DNA of 64,000 bases from Candidatus Yanofskybacteria bacterium (lineage in GTDB: Bacteria > Patescibacteriota > Minisyncoccia > 2-02-FULL-40-12 > IGHO2-01-FULL-4-A). This document shows positions 22,665 through 59,159 of this stretch, in pieces (within the stretch, counting starts at the first letter, position 1; every line of letters begins with the position of its first letter). The DNA lies in contig JACPNJ010000001.1 in the NCBI GenBank assembly GCA_016185545.1, forward strand, positions 22,565 to 86,564, given 5' to 3'. Made by a program: the position numbers and the translations under genes. Under the pieces are notes generated by a model. The model worked only from the letters and a program-made list of their open reading frames with translations. It was not told the origin of the DNA and ran no database searches.

Positions 22665-22962
22665 CGCTCATCCCCTGCCAATTTTTATCAGGTGTCCTCG
22701 CAGTACAAATAATATGTTGATTTTCTCGTTTTTCTGTCAGGCGAAGTTTCTTGTGGGCGGTGCTTTAGCCCGCCCATAGAATCTCCTCTGATAAAAAAAT
22801 CGTACCCCTTACGCTCACCCAGCCCCACTTTTATTCTAAAAGTGGGGCTGGGTTCGCTCCGTCCCAATTTTCTTTATCAGCGAAAAACTTCAAAAATCAA
22901 CATTTATTTGTTACTACTCAAGCCAATTGATAAAAATTGACAGGGGCTCGCTCTAGTCTAAA
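22665..22962. mobile_element. MITE-like repeat family A, copy 1 (about 295 bp, TIR CCCCTGCCAATTTTTATCA, internal hairpin CCCAGCCCCACTTTT...AAAAGTGGGGCTGGG)
   Basis: Near-identical to 55015-55262 except for a 53-bp internal insertion and a different but still self-complementary central hairpin. The two ends are inverted repeats of each other. Confidence 0.5.
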
Positions 22963-23843: not shown

Positions 23844-23964
23844 TTTGTTTGTCCGCACACAGCGAATCGAGTCCTATCAAAAATTACAAACCCTAATCCC
23901 AGCCGTAGTTTTAGCAAAAACTACGGCTGGGTGATTTTTATCACTTCGATAATGAATTACTGCT

Positions 23965-24135
23965 AAAAATTAGAGCGAGGCCATTATGCCTCATAGCACC
24001 GTCAAAAGAGTGGATTGCACGGTTTGCGAGCAGTACAATAGTAAAGCACTGCGAGCAAAATCCACGCTTTTGACGGAATGCAGAATTCTCGCTGGGAATT
24101 CAAATGGTGATAGGAGGCATAATGGCGAGCGGATA
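23965..24135. mobile_element. MITE-like repeat family B, copy 1 (about 170 bp, TIR GCGAGGCCATTATGCC / GGCATAATGGCGAGC, long internal hairpin)
   Basis: Second copy at 53378-53548 with the same termini and the internal CCGTCAAAAGAGTGGATT / AATCCACGCTTTTGACGG inverted pair. Confidence 0.5.
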
Positions 24136-26170: not shown

Positions 26171-26356
26171 TTATAGCAAACCCAAATATTATGTCAATTG
26201 TTTGTGGATAACCAAAATACTGAGAATAACTCGGTTTTTTTACTCCCAGGGGGTGGGGAATTAAAAGACAAAGTGTTAGATATTTTTGGAAATTTCTGGA
26301 GTTTCTATAAATAAGCTCTAGAAATGAGCCATAGCAATAACTGATGCCTTTCTTTA

Positions 26357-27160
26357 CTTAGAGGCTCAGCCTCTAAGTAACCAACAACTTACAATTTTTG
26401 CCGAGACACCTCGGCTTTTATTTTACTTTCGCCGCACAGGTTACTTAGAGGTTGAGCCTCTAAGTAACCTGTGCTATAAGTTTAATCTATGAGAAAACTT
26501 CAATTTGAAAATGGAGAGTTTTATCACATATACAACCGGGGCAACAATAAAAGGCCTATTTTTATGAAATCTTTTGATTTGCAGAGATTTTTGCAAAGTA
26601 TGATTGAATTCAATGTAGATGGACCAATCGGAAGTATTTATGCCGTTTCTTTCAACAAAGAATCACTTAGAGGCTCAGCCTCTAAGTCGAGACGACCAGT
26701 TGATATTGTTTGTTATTGCCTAAATCCTAACCATTTTCATCTTTTAGTTAGACAGTTGGAAAACGATGGAATTAAGAATTTTATGCATAAATTAGGAACT
26801 GGATATACAATGTATTTTAATAATAAACACGAATTGAACGGTGGACTTTTTCAGGGGAGATATAAAGCAATTCACATAGATACAAATGATTATCTGTTGT
26901 ATTTAAGCGCTTATATCAATTTAAATCCTGAAGCCCATCAACTTAGAGGCTCAGCCTCTAAGTTGTGCCAATCAAGTTGGAATGAATATATCGGTGATAA
27001 ATCTAGCAAGGGTAAATTGTGCAATACCAGGATTGTATTGTCGCAGTTTGAAACCGTGGAGGGTTATAAAAAATTTGCCGAAAAGGCGCTCGGGGTGATT
27101 ATAGAGAAAAAAGAGATGGAAGAATCCCTGAAGCTTTTACTTAGAGGCTGAGCCTCTAAG
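26357..27160. repeat. REP-like 21-bp palindrome CTTAGAGGCT(C/G)AGCCTCTAAG, five copies (26357-26377, 26444-26464, 26666-26686, 26942-26962, 27140-27160)
   Basis: Exact or 1-mismatch copies read from the sequence. Copies 3 and 4 lie in frame inside the RAYT ORF (LRGSASK). Copy 5 contains the ORF's TGA stop. Confidence 0.7.
26489..27151 (+). CDS. REP-associated tyrosine transposase (RAYT) / IS200-like HuH Y1 transposase
   Basis: 'GEFYHIYNRGNNKRPIF' N-terminal RAYT motif, HuH motif 'NHFHLLV' and catalytic tyrosine context 'GGLFQGRYKA'. Confidence 0.75.
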   Translation: MRKLQFENGEFYHIYNRGNNKRPIFMKSFDLQRFLQSMIEFNVDGPIGSIYAVSFNKESLRGSASKSRRPVDIVCYCLNPNHFHLLVRQLENDGIKNFMHKLGTGYTMYFNNKHELNGGLFQGRYKAIHIDTNDYLLYLSAYINLNPEAHQLRGSASKLCQSSWNEYIGDKSSKGKLCNTRIVLSQFETVEGYKKFAEKALGVIIEKKEMEESLKLLLRG

Positions 27161-27294
27161 TGGCTATGGGCGCTTGCTTGGCGCTTTAAATTTTGTTATT
27201 ATTCTCAGCATGTCAGAAGTTAGTAGTACAACCCCGTTAGATATTTACGTTGTTAAGCAAACTAACGAGGTTAAATCGGGCATATTGTTAATTT

Positions 27295-28062: not shown

Positions 28063-28512
28063 ATGTCCGATATAGAACTGATCAAACAATTACGCGACTC
28101 TACCGGTCTTTCTTTTAATGAGATTAAACGTGCCTTGGACGAAGCCGATGGAGACAAATCGCGAGCACTGGAAGTGCTAAAAGCTCACGGTGTTAAAGTA
28201 GCCGAAAAGAAAGCATTGCGCGCAACCGGTCAGGGCAGGGTGGAGGCATACATCCATTCAAATAAAAAAGTCGGGGTTTTGGTGGAACTGTTGTGTGAGA
28301 CCGACTTTGTAGCGCACAATCCATTGTTTGGTGAATTGGCTCATGAAATAGCAATGCATGTCGCGGCAATGGATCCGAAAGACAATCGTGAATTATTGGG
28401 CCAGCCGTACATAAGGGATCAGGACATAACCATCGAACAGCTTATTACCCAACACATTGCTAAATTGGGCGAGAATATTAAAGTGGGGAAGTTTTGTAGG
28501 TTGCAGTTATAG
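28063..28512 (+). CDS. tsf: elongation factor Ts (short form)
   Basis: N-terminal UBA-like 'LIKQLRDSTGLSFNEIKRALDEADGDKSRALEVLK' and 'GVLVELLCETDFVA'. Directly follows rpsB as in the conserved rpsB-tsf operon. Confidence 0.8.
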   Translation: MSDIELIKQLRDSTGLSFNEIKRALDEADGDKSRALEVLKAHGVKVAEKKALRATGQGRVEAYIHSNKKVGVLVELLCETDFVAHNPLFGELAHEIAMHVAAMDPKDNRELLGQPYIRDQDITIEQLITQHIAKLGENIKVGKFCRLQL

Positions 28513-28591
28513 GTTATAGCTTATAGGTGTTAGGTCATAGCTTTGATTCGGAAAGCTATCGACCATCAGCTATCAGTTATTATCAGCTGAT

Positions 28592-29814: not shown

Positions 29815-29974
29815 CCACTCGCCATAGTACCCCTTGGGAACTTCAAAAATCCCAGCGAGATTTTTTCATCTTTTGTGATTGCCGCCATTTGTCAAGACAC
29901 TCACTTCGTTCGGTCATTGACAAAACCATGCTGGCGGCAACCCCAGAAGTCCCAAAAGGCACTATGGCTCGCTC
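29815..29974. mobile_element. MITE-like repeat family C (about 160 bp, TIR CCATAGTGCCTTTTGGGACTTC / GAAGTTCCCAAAAGGTACTATGG), inverted copy
   Basis: The reverse complement is about 90% identical to 55418-55579. Located between rpmG and tRNA-Trp. Confidence 0.5.
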
Positions 29975-34471: not shown

Positions 34472-34865
34472 GATTTAGTTGTCAGTTATCAGCAAAAATT
34501 TAGCTGCAAACTGCAAACTTAGATTTCTTTATTAACCTCCCTCACCATATTAAAGCTTATTGAACTTTAATATTAACACCATATCTTTTACTAAAAAATC
34601 AATCAATGTGGATAACTTGCTTGTGTAATCGGCAGTCGCAAGCCGCCAATCGTTAATAACGCGGAGCCCCGACCTTGTCGGGGCTCCGCAGAACGTGCCC
34701 GCATTCCAAAAATTCGGAAAGCGGACTCTCATATCATATTGCACCCAGAACTAAAACCAAAAATAATGCGAATACTATAAAATATGTCAACTTGACTATA
34801 AAATTGTATTTACTAAAATTTTATCTAGCTTTGATAGCTTTGTGGGGTTGACCGTTGGGTAAATT

Positions 34866-37508: not shown

Positions 37509-38435
37509 ATGCCGCGAAAATTTGAGGTGGATGCAGAAGGCACGGAATTCATTATAGAAAAAGGGCAATCGGTAAGTGCAACTGCCAGATTATTAGCCGG
37601 GCGTGACCTCATAATCAGCCGTTATCTTTTTGTGGCTTATACGATACTAACCGGCCACGAAAGAGATTTTAAGGCAGGCAGATATAAAATTGCTCAACCG
37701 ATCAGCATAGCTGGGTTAGTCAGCATGTTCTCGCGAGGACTTTCTGAACCCGAAGATATTATTGTAACGATTCCCGAGGGTTCAAATGTTGCCGATGTTG
37801 ACCGGATACTGGATCAAGCCGGACTAATCAATGAAGGTGATTTTTTGAATAGTGGCGCTGTTGAATTGGAGGGGTATTTATTTCCAGATACATACCACTT
37901 ACGTAATCGCCAATCACCAACCGCCAATCGCCAACTTGAGGTAGATGAAATAATTAAAAAAATGCGGGAGACTTTTGAAATAAAAACAGCCGATTTATTA
38001 AAAAGTCTCGGCAAATCAGAAAGAAACGAAGCGATTATTGTTGCTTCAATGTTGGAAAAAGAAGTCAAAACCGAACAGGATATGCGACTGGTAGCGGGAA
38101 TAATAAAAAAAAGATTGAAACAGGGAATGCCATTGGAAATTGATGCCACGGTAGCTTATGGTGTTTGCCGCCGAAGATTTTTACTTGGTGAATATTGCGA
38201 TGTTTCACTGGCTAACATTGTTGATAACATTCCGATTGATTCAGCATATAATACTTATAAAAGGAAAGGATTACCCATTGGTCCAATTTCTAACCCCGGA
38301 CTTGTGGCAATAAATGCTGCCCTAAATCCACAGTTGAGCGATTACTTTTACTATTTGAGTTCCAAAGATGGAACAACAATTTTTTCTAAAACAGCGGCGG
38401 AACACATAAAGGCGAGACAGAAATATTTGAAATAG
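37509..38435 (+). CDS. mltG: endolytic murein transglycosylase MltG (YceG-like)
   Basis: 'EGYLFPDTYHL' YceG signature. Contains the in-frame CGCCAAT heptamer array at 37909-37937. Confidence 0.75.
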   Translation: MPRKFEVDAEGTEFIIEKGQSVSATARLLAGRDLIISRYLFVAYTILTGHERDFKAGRYKIAQPISIAGLVSMFSRGLSEPEDIIVTIPEGSNVADVDRILDQAGLINEGDFLNSGAVELEGYLFPDTYHLRNRQSPTANRQLEVDEIIKKMRETFEIKTADLLKSLGKSERNEAIIVASMLEKEVKTEQDMRLVAGIIKKRLKQGMPLEIDATVAYGVCRRRFLLGEYCDVSLANIVDNIPIDSAYNTYKRKGLPIGPISNPGLVAINAALNPQLSDYFYYLSSKDGTTIFSKTAAEHIKARQKYLK

Positions 38436-38505
38436 CTGATAGGTGATAGCTGATAGGTGATAGTAAGTTTTCTATAACCTATAACCTATAACCTATAACC
38501 TAATT

Positions 38506-38832
38506 TTGTTAAATCTTTTAATTAATACTGCCCACGCAGTTGAATTGCCGACATTTGATCAACCCGATTTACCGGCTTTTATCAATTCGGTTTACAGTTT
38601 TGCTCTTATGGTTGTCGGTATTGTTGTTTTTGTCCGGTTATTATACGCTGGTTTCCGATTGCTGACTGCCGCCGGTAACGCGAGTAAAATATCAGACGCC
38701 AAAGAGAAAATTAAAAACGCAATTATCGGTACGATTTTACTTTTTGCCGCTTATTTGATACTGTACGTAATTAATCCCGACTTGGTTAAAAATACGCTTG
38801 ATTTCAGTTTATTCCGCAACTTGACGCAGTAA
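38506..38832 (+). CDS. small two-TM membrane protein (pilin/VirB2-like?)
   Basis: Leader-like N-terminus and two hydrophobic helices separated by 'AGNASKISDAKEK'. Only a shape resemblance to TrbC/VirB2-type pilins. Confidence 0.3.
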   Translation: MLNLLINTAHAVELPTFDQPDLPAFINSVYSFALMVVGIVVFVRLLYAGFRLLTAAGNASKISDAKEKIKNAIIGTILLFAAYLILYVINPDLVKNTLDFSLFRNLTQ

Positions 38833-39068
38833 TTCGGTTTTGTTACACTTGAATTGCCGTAGAAAGTGGTGCAGCCGAAGAGGCATAAGACGCCATTGAG
38901 GCATATCCAAGATACTTTGTATTTGGGTTTGTTTCTGCGGCGAAAGCCGTTTTTATTTGGATATGAATCCCGAACGAGGCCGCCTTTACTAGCAACCATG
39001 AAAGGTTACGGTGGCTATCTAAGCGGGATTGATAATGTAACTTATTAATAGGCACGGAAATGATTTGA

Positions 39069-39623
39069 ATGAGTAAATCATTTCCTGTCTCGTACGGGAT
39101 GAAAATTTTTGCGCAAAAAAAAGAAGAACTTGTTAAACTTAAGGACAAACTGGCAAAGGCCAAGATTGTTGTTTTTTCATCTTTTGCTAGAGAGGGCGAG
39201 AAGGGATTAAATGTAGGTGAAATGAGAGAGCTCAAAAGGGGGCTTAAGGCCTTTGATTCCGAATATCTGGTGGAGAAAAAAACCTTGCTTGATAAAGCGC
39301 TTACGCAATCGCCAATCGCCAATCGCCAATCGCCAATTAATGTTTTTGAATATACCGGGTCAGTGGGGGTTGCATTCGGTTATGGCGACGAACAGTCAAC
39401 TGCTAAATCAATTTATAATTTTGCAAAAAAACACCCGGCGCTCAAATATTTTGGCGCCATTCAAACCGGCAAGTTTATGGATTTAAATCAATTTACCGAG
39501 TTTGCAAAATTGCCAACTAAAGAGGTTATGATTGCAAGATTGCTAGGGATGATGAAATATCCGATTAGTGCGTTAGCAATGGTTTTGGATCAAATAGCAA
39601 AAAATAAAAATAATATAAAATAA
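39069..39623 (+). CDS. rplJ: 50S ribosomal protein L10
   Basis: '[43 protein letters not shown]' matches the L10 N-terminus. Contains the in-frame (CGCCAAT)x4 array at 39304-39334 encoding [12 protein letters not shown]. Confidence 0.8.
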
Positions 39624-39715
39624 TTTGTAGCTCTCCTACGCTAAAGCTTCGGAGGAGCACTTCTTCGCTAAATGGAGAAATGCTTGCACTTAGAAGCTCC
39701 GCTAGGAGCGAAGAA

Positions 39716-55417: not shown

Positions 55418-55579
55418 AGCAAAGCCATAGTGCCTTTTGGGACTTCTGGGGTTGCCGCCAGCATGGTTTTGTCAATGACCGAGTTAAGCGAGTGTCTTGA
55501 CAAATGGCGGCAATCACAAAAGATGAGCCGAGCTCGCTGGAGCGAGGCGAAGTTCCCAAAAGGTACTATGGCGAAGCGA
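55418..55579. mobile_element. MITE-like repeat family C, copy 2
   Basis: Matches the reverse complement of 29815-29974. Its right TIR overlaps the last codons of cysS. Confidence 0.5.
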
Positions 55580-58373: not shown

Positions 58374-59159
58374 TTGGCGATTATAATGAGAAGTATGATT
58401 ACTCAAAGGCAGGGGATATTACTCGCGTCAATAATTGAAAATTTTATCAGGACCGCGGAACCGGTAAGCTCAAAATTGCTTGAAAAATCAGGGTTTTTTG
58501 GTTTGAGTTCGGCCACAATCAGGGCCGAGATGAATGGCCTTGAAGATTTGGGTTTTCTTGCTCACATTTATACTTCCAGCGGACGTGTGCCGACAGACAG
58601 GGCATATAGGTATTATGTGGATAACATGGTAGTAAATCAAAAATCAAAAATCAAAAATCAAAAATATCAAAACGTGATCAAGAGTGCCGTCCATGATGCA
58701 GGGACAGATCCAAGAGAAATAAATAGAATTGTGGCGCAGACATTGTCAGAGTTGTCGGACAATCTTGTTATCACCGGAATTGAGGAAGAACAGGATTTTT
58801 TCAAAGTCGGACTTTCAAGCTTATTTGAAATGCCGGAATTTCGCGAGTTTGACAGGGCTTTCCGGCTGACAAGTTTTTTTGACGAGTTTGAGTCATTGTT
58901 TAATAAAATTGAAAAAGAATTTTTTGACTTGCCTGCCGAAGCTTTAGCGAAGGAGGGTGATATAAAAATTTTTATTGGTCGTGAAAATACGGTTCCCGAT
59001 ATACGTGACGAAACTGTTATGTTTGTCAAATATAATCTTCCGCATGACCTAACCGGTTCGCTTACCCTGATCGGCCCGACCAGAATGGATTATGCGAAAA
59101 ATATCGGCCTGATTAAATACGCAACCGGAGAATTGAATAAATTAAGTAAAGAAGTATAA
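58374..59159 (+). CDS. hrcA: heat-inducible transcription repressor HrcA; start uncertain (58374/58386/58395)
   Basis: 'RQGILLASIIENFIRTAEPVSSKLL' wHTH and HrcA C-terminal domain. Contains the (AATCAAA)x4 microsatellite at 58634-58662, translated NQKSKIKNQKYQ. Confidence 0.8.
   Translation: MAIIMRSMITQRQGILLASIIENFIRTAEPVSSKLLEKSGFFGLSSATIRAEMNGLEDLGFLAHIYTSSGRVPTDRAYRYYVDNMVVNQKSKIKNQKYQNVIKSAVHDAGTDPREINRIVAQTLSELSDNLVITGIEEEQDFFKVGLSSLFEMPEFREFDRAFRLTSFFDEFESLFNKIEKEFFDLPAEALAKEGDIKIFIGRENTVPDIRDETVMFVKYNLPHDLTGSLTLIGPTRMDYAKNIGLIKYATGELNKLSKEV

Follow-up and report, generated by a model that had tools for sequence, protein, structure and literature searches.

Tandem repeats of a 7-nt unit have been described as the STRR sequences of heterocystous cyanobacteria, as GGGAATC repeats in Xanthomonas and as GGGGA(T/C)T repeats in Nostoc, with polymerase slippage in preferred 7-nt steps proposed as the cause of STRR-type heptamers (Rehm et al., 2015; PMC4692102). 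The over-representation of heptameric simple sequence repeats (SSRs) in many bacterial genomes is cited in the same article (PMC4692102) as an observation from 2007. The arrays that we describe here resemble STRR-type repeats in that 7-nt units form many dispersed short tandem arrays per genome, mostly intergenic, in that some inverted pairs can form stem-loops, and in that length and sequence vary even among close relatives. However, each STRR-type genome is characterised by a single unit or a few, which are often rich in G and form quadruplexes, whereas the units here are locus-specific and mostly AT-rich, and the arrays also lie in frame within conserved housekeeping genes of a Patescibacteria host.

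A second related system comprises the TAACTGA direct repeats of marine Beggiatoaceae, some Cyanobacteria and Bacteroidetes, for which mobility was raised as a possibility without a mechanism (MacGregor, 2015; PMC4679880). As in our case, heptamer arrays of 2–6 copies are abundant, mostly intergenic and at times overlap stop codons, while a minority lie in open reading frames, where the reverse orientation encodes the 7-aa periodic LSVISYQ at the protein periphery. The TAACTGA system has one conserved unit, proposed to act immediately ahead of start codons as a regulator binding site, whereas we found many units, no association with start codons, an explicit pair of empty and expanded alleles, and an apparent donor-copy pair. 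Heptanucleotide repeats also occur among phase-variable SSR contingency loci, for example at hmw1A of Haemophilus influenzae (PMC8262952). In these loci, too, the unit length is indivisible by three and copy number changes through slipped-strand mispairing, but their tracts are long and nearly perfect, lie in genes for surface or restriction-modification functions or in the promoters of such genes, and switch on and off within populations, whereas the arrays here are short, lie in housekeeping genes and were seen only in frame-preserving (3n) states. Template switching and short-patch ectopic conversion give rise to templated insertions copied from a nearby donor. Our case resembles this class in that a short same-strand stretch from nearby appears to have replaced a shorter recipient, carrying donor flank bases with it, and differs in having no quasi-palindrome, in having as donor a repeat array, which may favour mispairing, and in being read from one genome. 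Our literature searches found no report of heptamer or tandem-repeat arrays in Patescibacteria (CPR).

We analysed a window of 64,000 nt from a Candidatus Yanofskybacteria contig, in which TRF reported eight period-7 arrays, five of them intergenic, and no arrays of period 4–6 or 8–9 under the same filter. Self-matches of 14 nt occurred in the window at lags 7 and 14 only (three and four hits, respectively), compared to zero in Markov shuffles. With tandem 7-nt units in at least about three copies (4.3 and 4.6 in the two genes discussed below), an over-representation of period 7 and a mostly intergenic location, the arrays fit the general class of heptamer SSRs. They represent no named unit family, given that units differ between loci and between genomes; while named families such as STRR1-3, TAACTGA and GGGAATC amount to one or a few characteristic units per genome, the eight arrays in these 64 kb comprised seven different units.

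TRF reported 119 non-overlapping arrays across the window and 49 Patescibacteria loci; of these, 61 had period 7, compared to 22 with period 8, 14 with period 9 and three with period 6, and two Firmicutes outgroup loci contained zero period-7 arrays. In self-matches of the pool, lag 8 (13 hits) was on par with lag 7 (12 hits), due to two loci (L019 and L021). The pooled arrays lay mostly outside long open frames, and many formed paired heptad-periodic hairpins; in-frame arrays were present in other genomes in MurD, RsmH and a second MltG loop. The arrays in rplJ and mltG are part of this clade-wide excess of heptamer arrays of diverse units, which is not special to these two genes. The third in-frame heptamer array of the window, the perfect (AAATCAA)x4.6 in hrcA (58634–58665, + strand; TRF), is translated as NQKSKIKNQK, within the linker that follows the N-terminal DNA-binding domain. 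Placed on a solved structure, it falls in the inter-domain linker, approximately 3 aa longer than in the distant Thermotoga homologue, and in a relative (L063) the MltG loop contains about eight copies of the same unit. We rejected the idea that CGCCAAT is a specially favoured unit across phyla: the viral_contigs count was 9 for this unit and 2, 17 and 5 for composition-matched permuted heptamers. A metagenome scan for CGCCAAT arrays returned at least 120 contigs, mostly with a GC content of 0.6–0.7, and 413 kb of these matching contigs contained 205 period-7 arrays, indicating only that heptamer arrays of any unit are common. A quantal array length of 31–32 nt, reflecting bursts of three added units even in noncoding DNA, was also set aside because the TRF length mode at 31–32 nt (23 of 61 arrays) is partly a score-threshold effect and perfect arrays elsewhere are anywhere between 20 and 60 nt long.

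The preliminary description of this DNA had reported arrays of the same heptamer in frame in two genes, mltG and rplJ, and TRF, translation and orthologue comparison bear this out, with coordinates that shift by a few bases. The gene mltG (37509–38435, + strand) encodes a YceG-family endolytic transglycosylase of 308 aa (YceG/MltG, PF02618, E 2e-66) and hosts a degenerate array, AATCGCC x4.3, at 37905–37934 on the + strand (82% matches in TRF), within the string CGTAATCGCCAATCACCAACCGCCAATCGCCAAC (37902–37935). The gene rplJ (39099–39623, + strand) encodes ribosomal protein uL10 (174 aa per NCBI annotation; Ribosomal_L10, PF00466), which is 100% identical to the NCBI L10 of a Candidatus Yanofskybacteria MAG, and hosts a perfect array, (CAATCGC)x4.6, at 39306–39337 on the + strand (100% matches in TRF), encoding L10 residues Q70–I80; the rplJ string quoted originally spans 39304–39337. 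Exact runs at lag 7 were 31–32 nt long. With up to two mismatches, CGCCAATCGCCAAT had nine matches compared to 0.74 expected, and 0 of 100 shuffles reached nine. The translations given originally, NRQSPTANRQL for mltG and a 13-residue peptide for rplJ, are correct.

Perfect arrays of 31–32 nt are near a common k-mer size, and the arrays are break points of Logan k=31 contigs, which could point to a collapsed or chimeric repeat from assembly. However, the mltG array is not collapsible because it is degenerate, and four other samples of the strain, assembled independently, yielded the same array base for base. A fifth contig (L184), found by an rplL look-up, is a k=31 contig that begins inside the rplJ array and does not span its full length; it matches the right-hand 30 nt of that array. 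A look-up by the pilin ORF returned nothing. Moreover, no reading frame is broken, degenerate repeats encode an L10 segment just as long in relatives, and many independent MAGs contain degenerate arrays of this size. It is extremely unlikely that the arrays are assembly artefacts.

Codon comparison of the rplJ array with five relatives (L185, L056, L057, L058 and L059) revealed both shorter and equally long alleles. At this site L185, whose gene is 72% identical overall and whose array flanks are the same, reads 'acg caatcgc caatt aat gtt ttt ga', and the window has the same sequence plus (CAATCGC)x3, a difference of exactly three units, 21 nt or 7 aa. The layout of L056 (CAATTGC CAATC) is unexpanded as in L185, and L057, L058 and L059 have the expanded length with degenerate sequence. 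The contig of the nearest relative, L061, stops ∼20 nt short of the rplJ site. Alleles of 1.7 and 4.7 units with the same flanks at this site in relatives agree with the earlier proposal that the repeat is slippage-prone; its copy number differs between lineages in three-unit steps, as had been anticipated from the reading frame. The unexpanded alleles keep 1.7 units and the flank CT(T/G)ACG, and CTT-ACG encodes the native L68-T69 of L10, conserved in rplJ of relatives. Given that L185 has the same flanks and exactly three units fewer, the alignment demonstrates, as far as present-day alleles can tell, a length change of the rplJ array in place, by three units between alleles, which would have started from a native 1.7-unit proto-repeat (acg CAATCGC CAATT aat). 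The insertion into rplJ proposed in the preliminary description is thus not upheld, the proto-repeat being native to the gene, and the extra segment of about 11 aa expected in both proteins amounts to 7 aa in L10 and 8 aa in MltG. The preliminary description had also named, as a point that would count against it, orthologues of distant relatives with the same peptide encoded by non-repetitive codons. This is borne out in part: an L10 segment of the expanded length does occur in relatives, at ∼73% nucleotide identity, with codons that are degenerate repeats. Because relatives encode this same-length segment, the expanded state is not unique to the window genome.

With a 7-nt unit, the reading frame is kept only by changes of three units. 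Given that intermediates with one or two additional units would frameshift rplJ, growth to the perfect 4.6 units probably took place by one event spanning several units, by conversion within the array or by recombinational import. A neighbour-joining tree of L10 scatters expanded, unexpanded and unrelated loop types, many L10 relatives having an unrelated K-type loop at the site. Given this scatter, the change at rplJ could have been an expansion or a contraction, in one or several events, and recombination between lineages is possible.

The mltG array, on the other hand, looks like a one-off ectopic templated copy of the rplJ array together with its 6-nt flank. A 37-nt segment of rplJ consisting of CTTACG, C and 4.3 units (39300–39336, + strand; repeat family D6), with a flank conserved in relatives, is the putative donor, and shares 34 of 37 nt, including CTTACG upstream of the array, with the mltG segment at 37898–37934 (+ strand), which consists of CTTACG, T and AATCGCC AATCACC AACCGCC AATCGCC AA; the shuffle maximum was 24 of 37. 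The mltG segment encodes (H)LRNRQSPTANRQ. Its CTTACG overlies the Y-R-F motif of MltG, conserved in at least 90% of homologues, F included, where the window reads Y-H-L. In comparison with the nearest MltG orthologue (L061), which has no proto-repeat at this site, the segment replaces ∼13 nt for a net gain of 24 nt, equal to the observed 8 additional residues. Given that the shared CTTACG flank is native to rplJ and overwrites an MltG motif, the mltG array does not seem to be independent of rplJ. We propose that an ectopic template switch or short-patch conversion would have carried a copy of the rplJ stretch, the native CTTACG plus 4.3 units, from its site 1.4 kb downstream on the same strand into the MltG loop, replacing the ∼13 nt, and that the differences from the present rplJ array (3 of 37 positions) would have been acquired since. 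If so, mltG arrays are expected only where rplJ carries CTTACGCAATCGC.

A probable third copy, CTTGTGTAATCGGCAGTCGCAAGCCGCCAATCGTTAA, lies at 34620–34656 (+ strand), between called genes and upstream of a gene for a TPR protein. It is 76% identical to the mltG copy and matches the rplJ copy at 27 of 37 positions, compared to a maximum of 21–24 in 20 shuffles, and may represent a further, decayed product of the same kind of copying. The order of copying is uncertain from the sequences at hand, given that the mltG and 34620 copies share a T at position 7 that the rplJ copy does not have. In addition, the loop of a MltG protein that is 65% identical (L062) begins with H-N-F-Q-S-P (CAATTTTCAATCTCC), weakly like the window insert, and from this likeness the mltG insert could be older than a recent local copy.

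This weakly similar loop start would also fit two independent slippage expansions in place, with the same unit by coincidence and no DNA transfer between rplJ and mltG. In-place slippage is demonstrated at rplJ, heptamer arrays emerge at many loci of the clade, and the MltG loop of other relatives independently gained other heptamer arrays. However, the shared CTTACG flank disfavours independent origins, because the identity reaches 6–7 nt upstream into sequence that is native only to rplJ and that breaks the MltG motif, and the site in the nearest MltG orthologue offers no repeat to expand. Assuming uniform unit usage, the probability that two of three coding arrays share one of 1608 stop-free unit classes is ∼0.2%, and CGCCAAT is not a favoured unit. 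We consider independent expansion improbable.

The three copies are in direct orientation within 4.7 kb, intergenic heptad hairpins of the window act as a dispersed family (28497–28590 and 38432–38502), and the K-type loop of many L10 relatives means that the T-type loop could be secondary. These observations would be compatible with a small non-autonomous mobile element (MITE- or REP-like, ∼37 nt, containing heptamer repeats) inserted in rplJ, in mltG and at 34620. Yet the coding copies have no terminal inverted repeats or target-site duplications, and the three copies have no defined ends: their left flanks share only CTTACG and their right flanks nothing. At rplJ, the 'empty' site keeps 1.7 units and the same flanks, unlike the empty site of a MITE, which has no element sequence, and CTTACG is conserved in-frame coding sequence of rplJ. 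No further copies of the 37-nt segment were found within the 64-kb window. An inserted element seems quite improbable, and the term mobile, used in the preliminary description, applies in the limited sense of a single 37-nt copy in mltG: no transposon features were found around the arrays, and the CTTACG flank accompanied 0 of 89 other (CGCCAAT)n arrays.

In AF2 models that are otherwise confident, both peptides fall within the internal segments of lowest confidence. L10 residues 71–80 have the lowest internal confidence (pLDDT 55), and the MltG insert is modelled as a coil between strand 128–132 and helix 141–164 (block pLDDT 72). Among homologues, the length of both loops is hypervariable, and the loops hold other 7-aa-periodic inserts derived from other units; in the L10 loop, residue identity was 0.21 at lag 7 and 0.05–0.12 at other lags. 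These models suggest that disordered surface loops tolerate the additional residues encoded by the arrays, and the encoded peptides would persist through this tolerance, without a specific function. A selected motif, QSPIANR, adding function to both proteins would offer another reason for their persistence, given that a QSPIANR-type peptide is present in L10, in MltG and in MurD of another contig, and that QSPIxNx variants are retained in several L10 lineages. Any heptamer array, however, encodes the same cyclic 7-aa peptide in every frame, so the identical peptide in L10 and MltG is automatic given the same unit on the same strand. The low pLDDT of the segments, the many unrelated inserts in these hypervariable loops, the free decay of the same-length segment in relatives (ITNN, IIDQ) and the origin of noncoding arrays by the same process all speak against selection for this motif, which we regard as very unlikely.

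Equally slim is the prospect that the arrays are phase-variable contingency repeats or RNA-level regulatory sites whose copy number tunes rplJ and mltG expression. A 7-nt unit does shift the frame, a regulatory role has been proposed for heptamer repeats in Beggiatoaceae and Nostoc (PMC4679880; bioRxiv 10.1101/2022.06.06.494920), and in one sample the rplJ array was a branch point of the k=31 graph, at which an alternative allele was not seen. Nevertheless, contingency loci are found in, or at the promoters of, dispensable genes with surface, antigen or restriction-modification roles, whereas the hosts here are uL10, MltG and HrcA, housekeeping proteins for which off-states would be lethal or costly, rplJ being essential. 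The degenerate mltG array was identical in four samples, with no within-strain length variation across their assemblies, and no frameshifted alleles were found among L10 and MltG homologues. Furthermore, the coding arrays have no complementary partner arm and are wholly missing from close relatives.

Considering these alternatives, we find it probable, if not certain, that a single joint explanation holds: repeat instability favouring 7-nt units across the Patescibacteria lineage would have generated the arrays, with a length change in place at rplJ, a copy of the rplJ segment in mltG, and loops that tolerate both. This is an instance of known repeat instability, neither a new genetic element nor a new system, and it implies no function for the peptides. 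It nonetheless offers a base-resolved case in which SSR instability adds residues to conserved proteins, essential ones included. For a ribosomal protein gene, two alleles exactly three heptamer units apart give the states 'before and after', and a likely donor-copy pair shows how an array would have been copied with its donor flank into a neighbouring gene. Beyond Cyanobacteria, Xanthomonas and Beggiatoaceae, it adds Patescibacteria to the groups with a poorly understood excess of heptanucleotide repeats; there, the heptamer process seems to underlie a noticeable part of the variation in loop length of housekeeping proteins, as well as a class of heptad-periodic intergenic hairpins. In practical terms, such arrays interrupt assembly at k=31 and make proteins of CPR genomes appear more divergent than they are.

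More speculatively, and with low confidence, Patescibacteria and other heptamer-rich bacteria might share a repeat-generating process with an intrinsic 7-nt step, multi-unit bursts and coupled short-patch ectopic copying. Intergenic heptad hairpins, and 7-aa insertions in surface loops of the essential proteins uL10, MltG, MurD, RsmH and HrcA, would arise continuously from it. It would drive the evolution of protein loops and 3'-UTRs in these reduced genomes in a lineage-specific way, and the in-frame arrays of essential genes would provide a natural read-out of its step size.

The intergenic arrays of the window include two arrays, (ATAGCTG/ATAGGTG)x4.6 and (CTATAAC)x4.4, paired at 38432–38502 (+ strand; TRF and folding), where a heptad-periodic bulged hairpin begins at the mltG stop codon and is followed by TAATTTTGTT (MFE −21.6 kcal/mol, z −3.2). 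A reverse-complement homologue of this hairpin, sharing both arm units, occupies another intergenic region at 28497–28590 (+ strand; 77% mean column identity). A long hairpin, also intergenic, spans 47323–47455 (+ strand; TRF and folding) and combines arrays of CGAAGCA, CGAAATA and AAATCCT/TTTCGGA (MFE −38.1 kcal/mol, z −3.3). A role of the intergenic array pairs as Rho-independent terminators was considered and rejected, as they are AT-rich rather than G+C-rich, have periodic mismatches and were unreported by a consensus scan. An Rfam scan of the whole window at gathering thresholds returned six tRNAs only, with nothing at the arrays. Overall, heptad hairpins had folding z scores of −3 to −6.6, and two of them are followed by T-rich tails. 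In two other loci (L005 and L007), a hairpin is located inside the rplJ-rplL operon.

In the window (42% G+C), which derives from a Candidatus Yanofskybacteria (Patescibacteria/CPR) MAG, rotations of one heptamer unit are arrayed in frame in mltG, the ORF of a YceG/MltG protein (37509-38435), and in rplJ, the ORF of ribosomal protein uL10 (39099-39623), with a T4SS-pilin-like ORF between them. TRF placed AATCGCC x4.3 at 37905-37934 in mltG (82% matches) and CAATCGC x4.6 at 39306-39337 in rplJ (100% matches). Both arrays thus exist as the preliminary description claimed, with correct sequence strings and translations, although its coordinates were 3-7 nt off. The array pattern was far above chance in the window (9 matches versus 0.74 expected), and the window matched itself at lags 7 and 14 only, while shuffles gave no such matches.

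The arrays had been attributed to insertion of a mobile or slippage-prone repeat. At rplJ, insertion of foreign DNA is contradicted by the unexpanded allele of a relative (L185), which already has a proto-repeat and the same flanks: in L185 the site runs acg CAATCGC CAATT aat gtt ttt ga, and in the window acg (CAATCGC)x4 CAATT aat gtt ttt ga. Between the two genes, which share just 72% identity as a whole, the flanks are identical and the window allele is longer by precisely three units (21 nt, 7 aa). Given these native flanks and the exact three-unit difference, the rplJ array is made of gene-native sequence that changes length in three-unit steps, which is slipped-strand behavior filtered by reading frame. 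The suggestion of a slippage-prone repeat varying in multiples of three therefore holds between lineages, with alleles of 1.7 and 4.7 units. Another relative (L056) has an unexpanded layout like L185 (CAATTGC CAATC), and three others (L057, L058, L059) have the expanded length with decayed units, e.g., CAATCAC CAATCAC TAATAAC CAATCGC CAATC. Given that the window array is perfect while those of equally distant relatives are decayed, recent regrowth or homogenization is implied. Since one-unit intermediates would frameshift rplJ, the perfect array would have required a single multi-slip event, intra-array conversion, or allele import by recombination. L10 loop states were scattered over the neighbor-joining tree.

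In mltG, a repeat search revealed that similarity to rplJ reaches upstream of the array. The 37-nt segments of mltG (37898-37934, CTTACGTAATCGCCAATCACCAACCGCCAATCGCCAA) and rplJ (39300-39336, CTTACGCAATCGCCAATCGCCAATCGCCAATCGCCAA) match at 34/37 positions, compared to 24/37 for the best of 20 shuffled windows. In rplJ, CTT-ACG specifies residues L68-T69 of the protein, and relatives conserve it in their rplJ; in mltG, CTTACG overlies the Y-R-F motif, in which F shows at least 90% conservation and which reads Y-H-L in the window. The nearest orthologous mltG locus (L061) has the same synteny and no proto-repeat, and relative to it a 37-nt patch in place of 13 nt gives exactly the +24 nt observed. 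The CTTACG flank was absent beside 89 other (CGCCAAT)n arrays. Given the shared flank, the fit of this patch, a unit that is not a favored one, and a probability of about 0.2% for a chance match of the unit class alone, we infer that mltG acquired its array by ectopic templated copying of the rplJ array together with the upstream flank. Donor and copy lie 1.4 kb apart on one strand, and the mltG copy would since have diverged at three positions. An intergenic segment at 34620-34656 (27-28/37) is probably a third, decayed copy. Two caveats apply: the order in which the three copies arose is uncertain, and the MltG loop of L062, a further homologous locus, weakly resembles the window's insert. 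The original interpretation is partly supported and can be refined to in-place three-unit slippage at rplJ with a templated local copy in mltG.

Both inserts sit in tolerant surface loops, given the coil or low pLDDT at these positions in AlphaFold models built from the L10 and MltG homologue alignments. MltG N133-Q142 is modeled as coil between a strand (128-132) and a helix (141-164), with a mean pLDDT of 72 in the insert block versus 92-98 in flanking blocks. L10 Q70-I80 falls mostly within residues 71-80, the lowest-confidence internal block (pLDDT 55), where DSSP assigned a short helix (72-76) with coil on each side. Yanofskybacteria L10 proteins mostly have 165-167 aa and a 7-aa KEVKSEV-type loop after KAL, from which the window's loop differs. 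Among 46 L10 homologues, loop length ranged from 6 to 34 residues and nine loops were 7-aa-periodic, built on four or more distinct units (QSPIANR, GQRLEFS, EGTRDKA, SQQPATS); residue identity was 0.21 at lag 7 versus 0.05-0.12 at other lags. The MltG loop after FPDTY(R)(F) spans 9 to 48 residues; the insert is absent in the closest relatives (70-72% identity), and other periodic inserts occur, such as about eight units of AAAAATC in L063, the unit of the window's hrcA array. Other short in-frame inserts turn up repeatedly in unrelated proteins and lineages: the L10 loop can also hold PSFVKTSEG, while PS(T/A)SSGQ(A/V) occupies another L10 site and is found in RsmH of L018 (relatives' L10 proteins with either insert: P0011, P0018, P0067; P0017, P0026, P0035, P0040). 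At 39636-39657 the window's rplJ-rplL spacer contains CTACGCTAAAGCTTCGGAGGAG, whose translation would resemble such a peptide. Together these suggest a second family of small dispersed sequences able to land in frame.

Four independently assembled contigs from other samples represent the same strain (1 SNP per 4-8 kb), and the mltG array is identical in all four. Same-strain Logan contigs (k=31) from other samples end or start inside heptamer arrays: L001-L004, from four samples, all end at base 38485, and L184 starts at 39308, the first 31-mer including the right flank of the rplJ array. Given this start, the pure-array 31-mer has a second continuation in that sample, supplied perhaps by an rplJ allele of greater length or by a different (CGCCAAT)n locus. 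The breaks at 38485 and 39308 imply a branching graph, through population heterogeneity or shared array k-mers.

The window has eight period-7 arrays with seven different units, in frame in mltG, rplJ and hrcA and otherwise intergenic. The hrcA array, a perfect (AAATCAA)x4.6 at 58634-58665, is translated as NQKSKIKNQK within the linker that follows the DNA-binding domain. For comparison we took 51 rplJ neighborhoods from GTDB species representatives (49 Patescibacteria and 2 Firmicutes). Period 7 accounted for 61 of 119 non-overlapping TRF arrays in the window and the Patescibacteria loci, and for none in the two Firmicutes loci. Two Yanofskybacteria loci favored period 8 instead (L019, five arrays and no period-7; L021, ten versus three), so the preferred repeat step may differ from lineage to lineage. 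In-frame arrays also occurred in MurD of L136, with the CGCCAAT unit of mltG and rplJ, at one common RsmH loop in L014, L018 and L028, and in a second MltG loop of L018. Arrays recur at corresponding intergenic positions in L185 and the window with unrelated units: (CTGAAGC)x4 lies upstream of the pilin gene in L185 (1-30), where the window has CTATAAC, and beyond the rplJ stop there is a paired array (L185 1000-1053).

Many intergenic arrays are adjacent, partly complementary pairs, often directly after a stop codon, that fold as long hairpins in which every seventh position is mismatched (z -3 to -6.6). Such pairs were found in the window (38432-38502, 28497-28590, 47323-47455) and in relatives (L005 3717-3786, L007 10494-10561, L013 6166-6237, L048 3930-4064), some of the latter inside the rplJ-rplL operon. 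The pairs at 28497-28590 and 38432-38502 are mutual reverse-complement homologues (77% mean column identity). A simple scan for canonical terminators did not flag these hairpins, and Rfam returned no match to them.

Rare in-ORF copies of TAACTGA repeats encode a 7-aa periodic peptide, and polymerase slippage has been proposed to explain heptamer repeats (PMC4692102, PMC4679880), for which a regulatory role was suggested in Nostoc (bioRxiv 10.1101/2022.06.06.494920). With this class, the arrays described here share 7-nt tandem units in many dispersed, mostly intergenic arrays but, unlike the named families, do not have one characteristic unit; they add to a known kind of repeat rather than forming a new one. 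Tests for a MITE were negative as to defined ends and an empty site free of element sequence, and the arrays do not look like contingency loci. Our literature search of a limited collection did not turn up heptamer arrays reported from Patescibacteria. The case is moderately interesting for its unusually clean rplJ allele pair and rplJ/mltG donor-copy pair, and because, throughout a large and little-studied clade, protein loops and intergenic hairpins appear to be shaped by this process. On a low-GC metagenome contig (L133 1778-1920), (TTGGGGA)x20 adjoins (CGCCAAT)n within a long ORF, together encoding PNPQSPI/QSPIANR repeats at the protein N-terminus; this contig may be cyanobacterial, as its unit is of the GGGGATT repeat type known from Nostoc.

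The window also contains five copies of a 23-nt palindrome, ACTTAGAGGCTCAGCCTCTAAGT (26356-27172; repeat family D1), irregularly spaced by 87-276 nt and overlapping ORFs. Apparently noncoding duplicated segments of 50-120 nt each, about 30 kb apart with 75-97% identity (22672-22949 and 55023-55246; 23964-24134 and 53377-53546; 29852-29969 and 55423-55540, inverted), may flank a duplicated or mobile region. Finally, the ATG at 39680 from which the long rplL ORF was called is spurious; homology places the start at GTG 39716, whose 124-aa product is exactly that of the gene called on L184.
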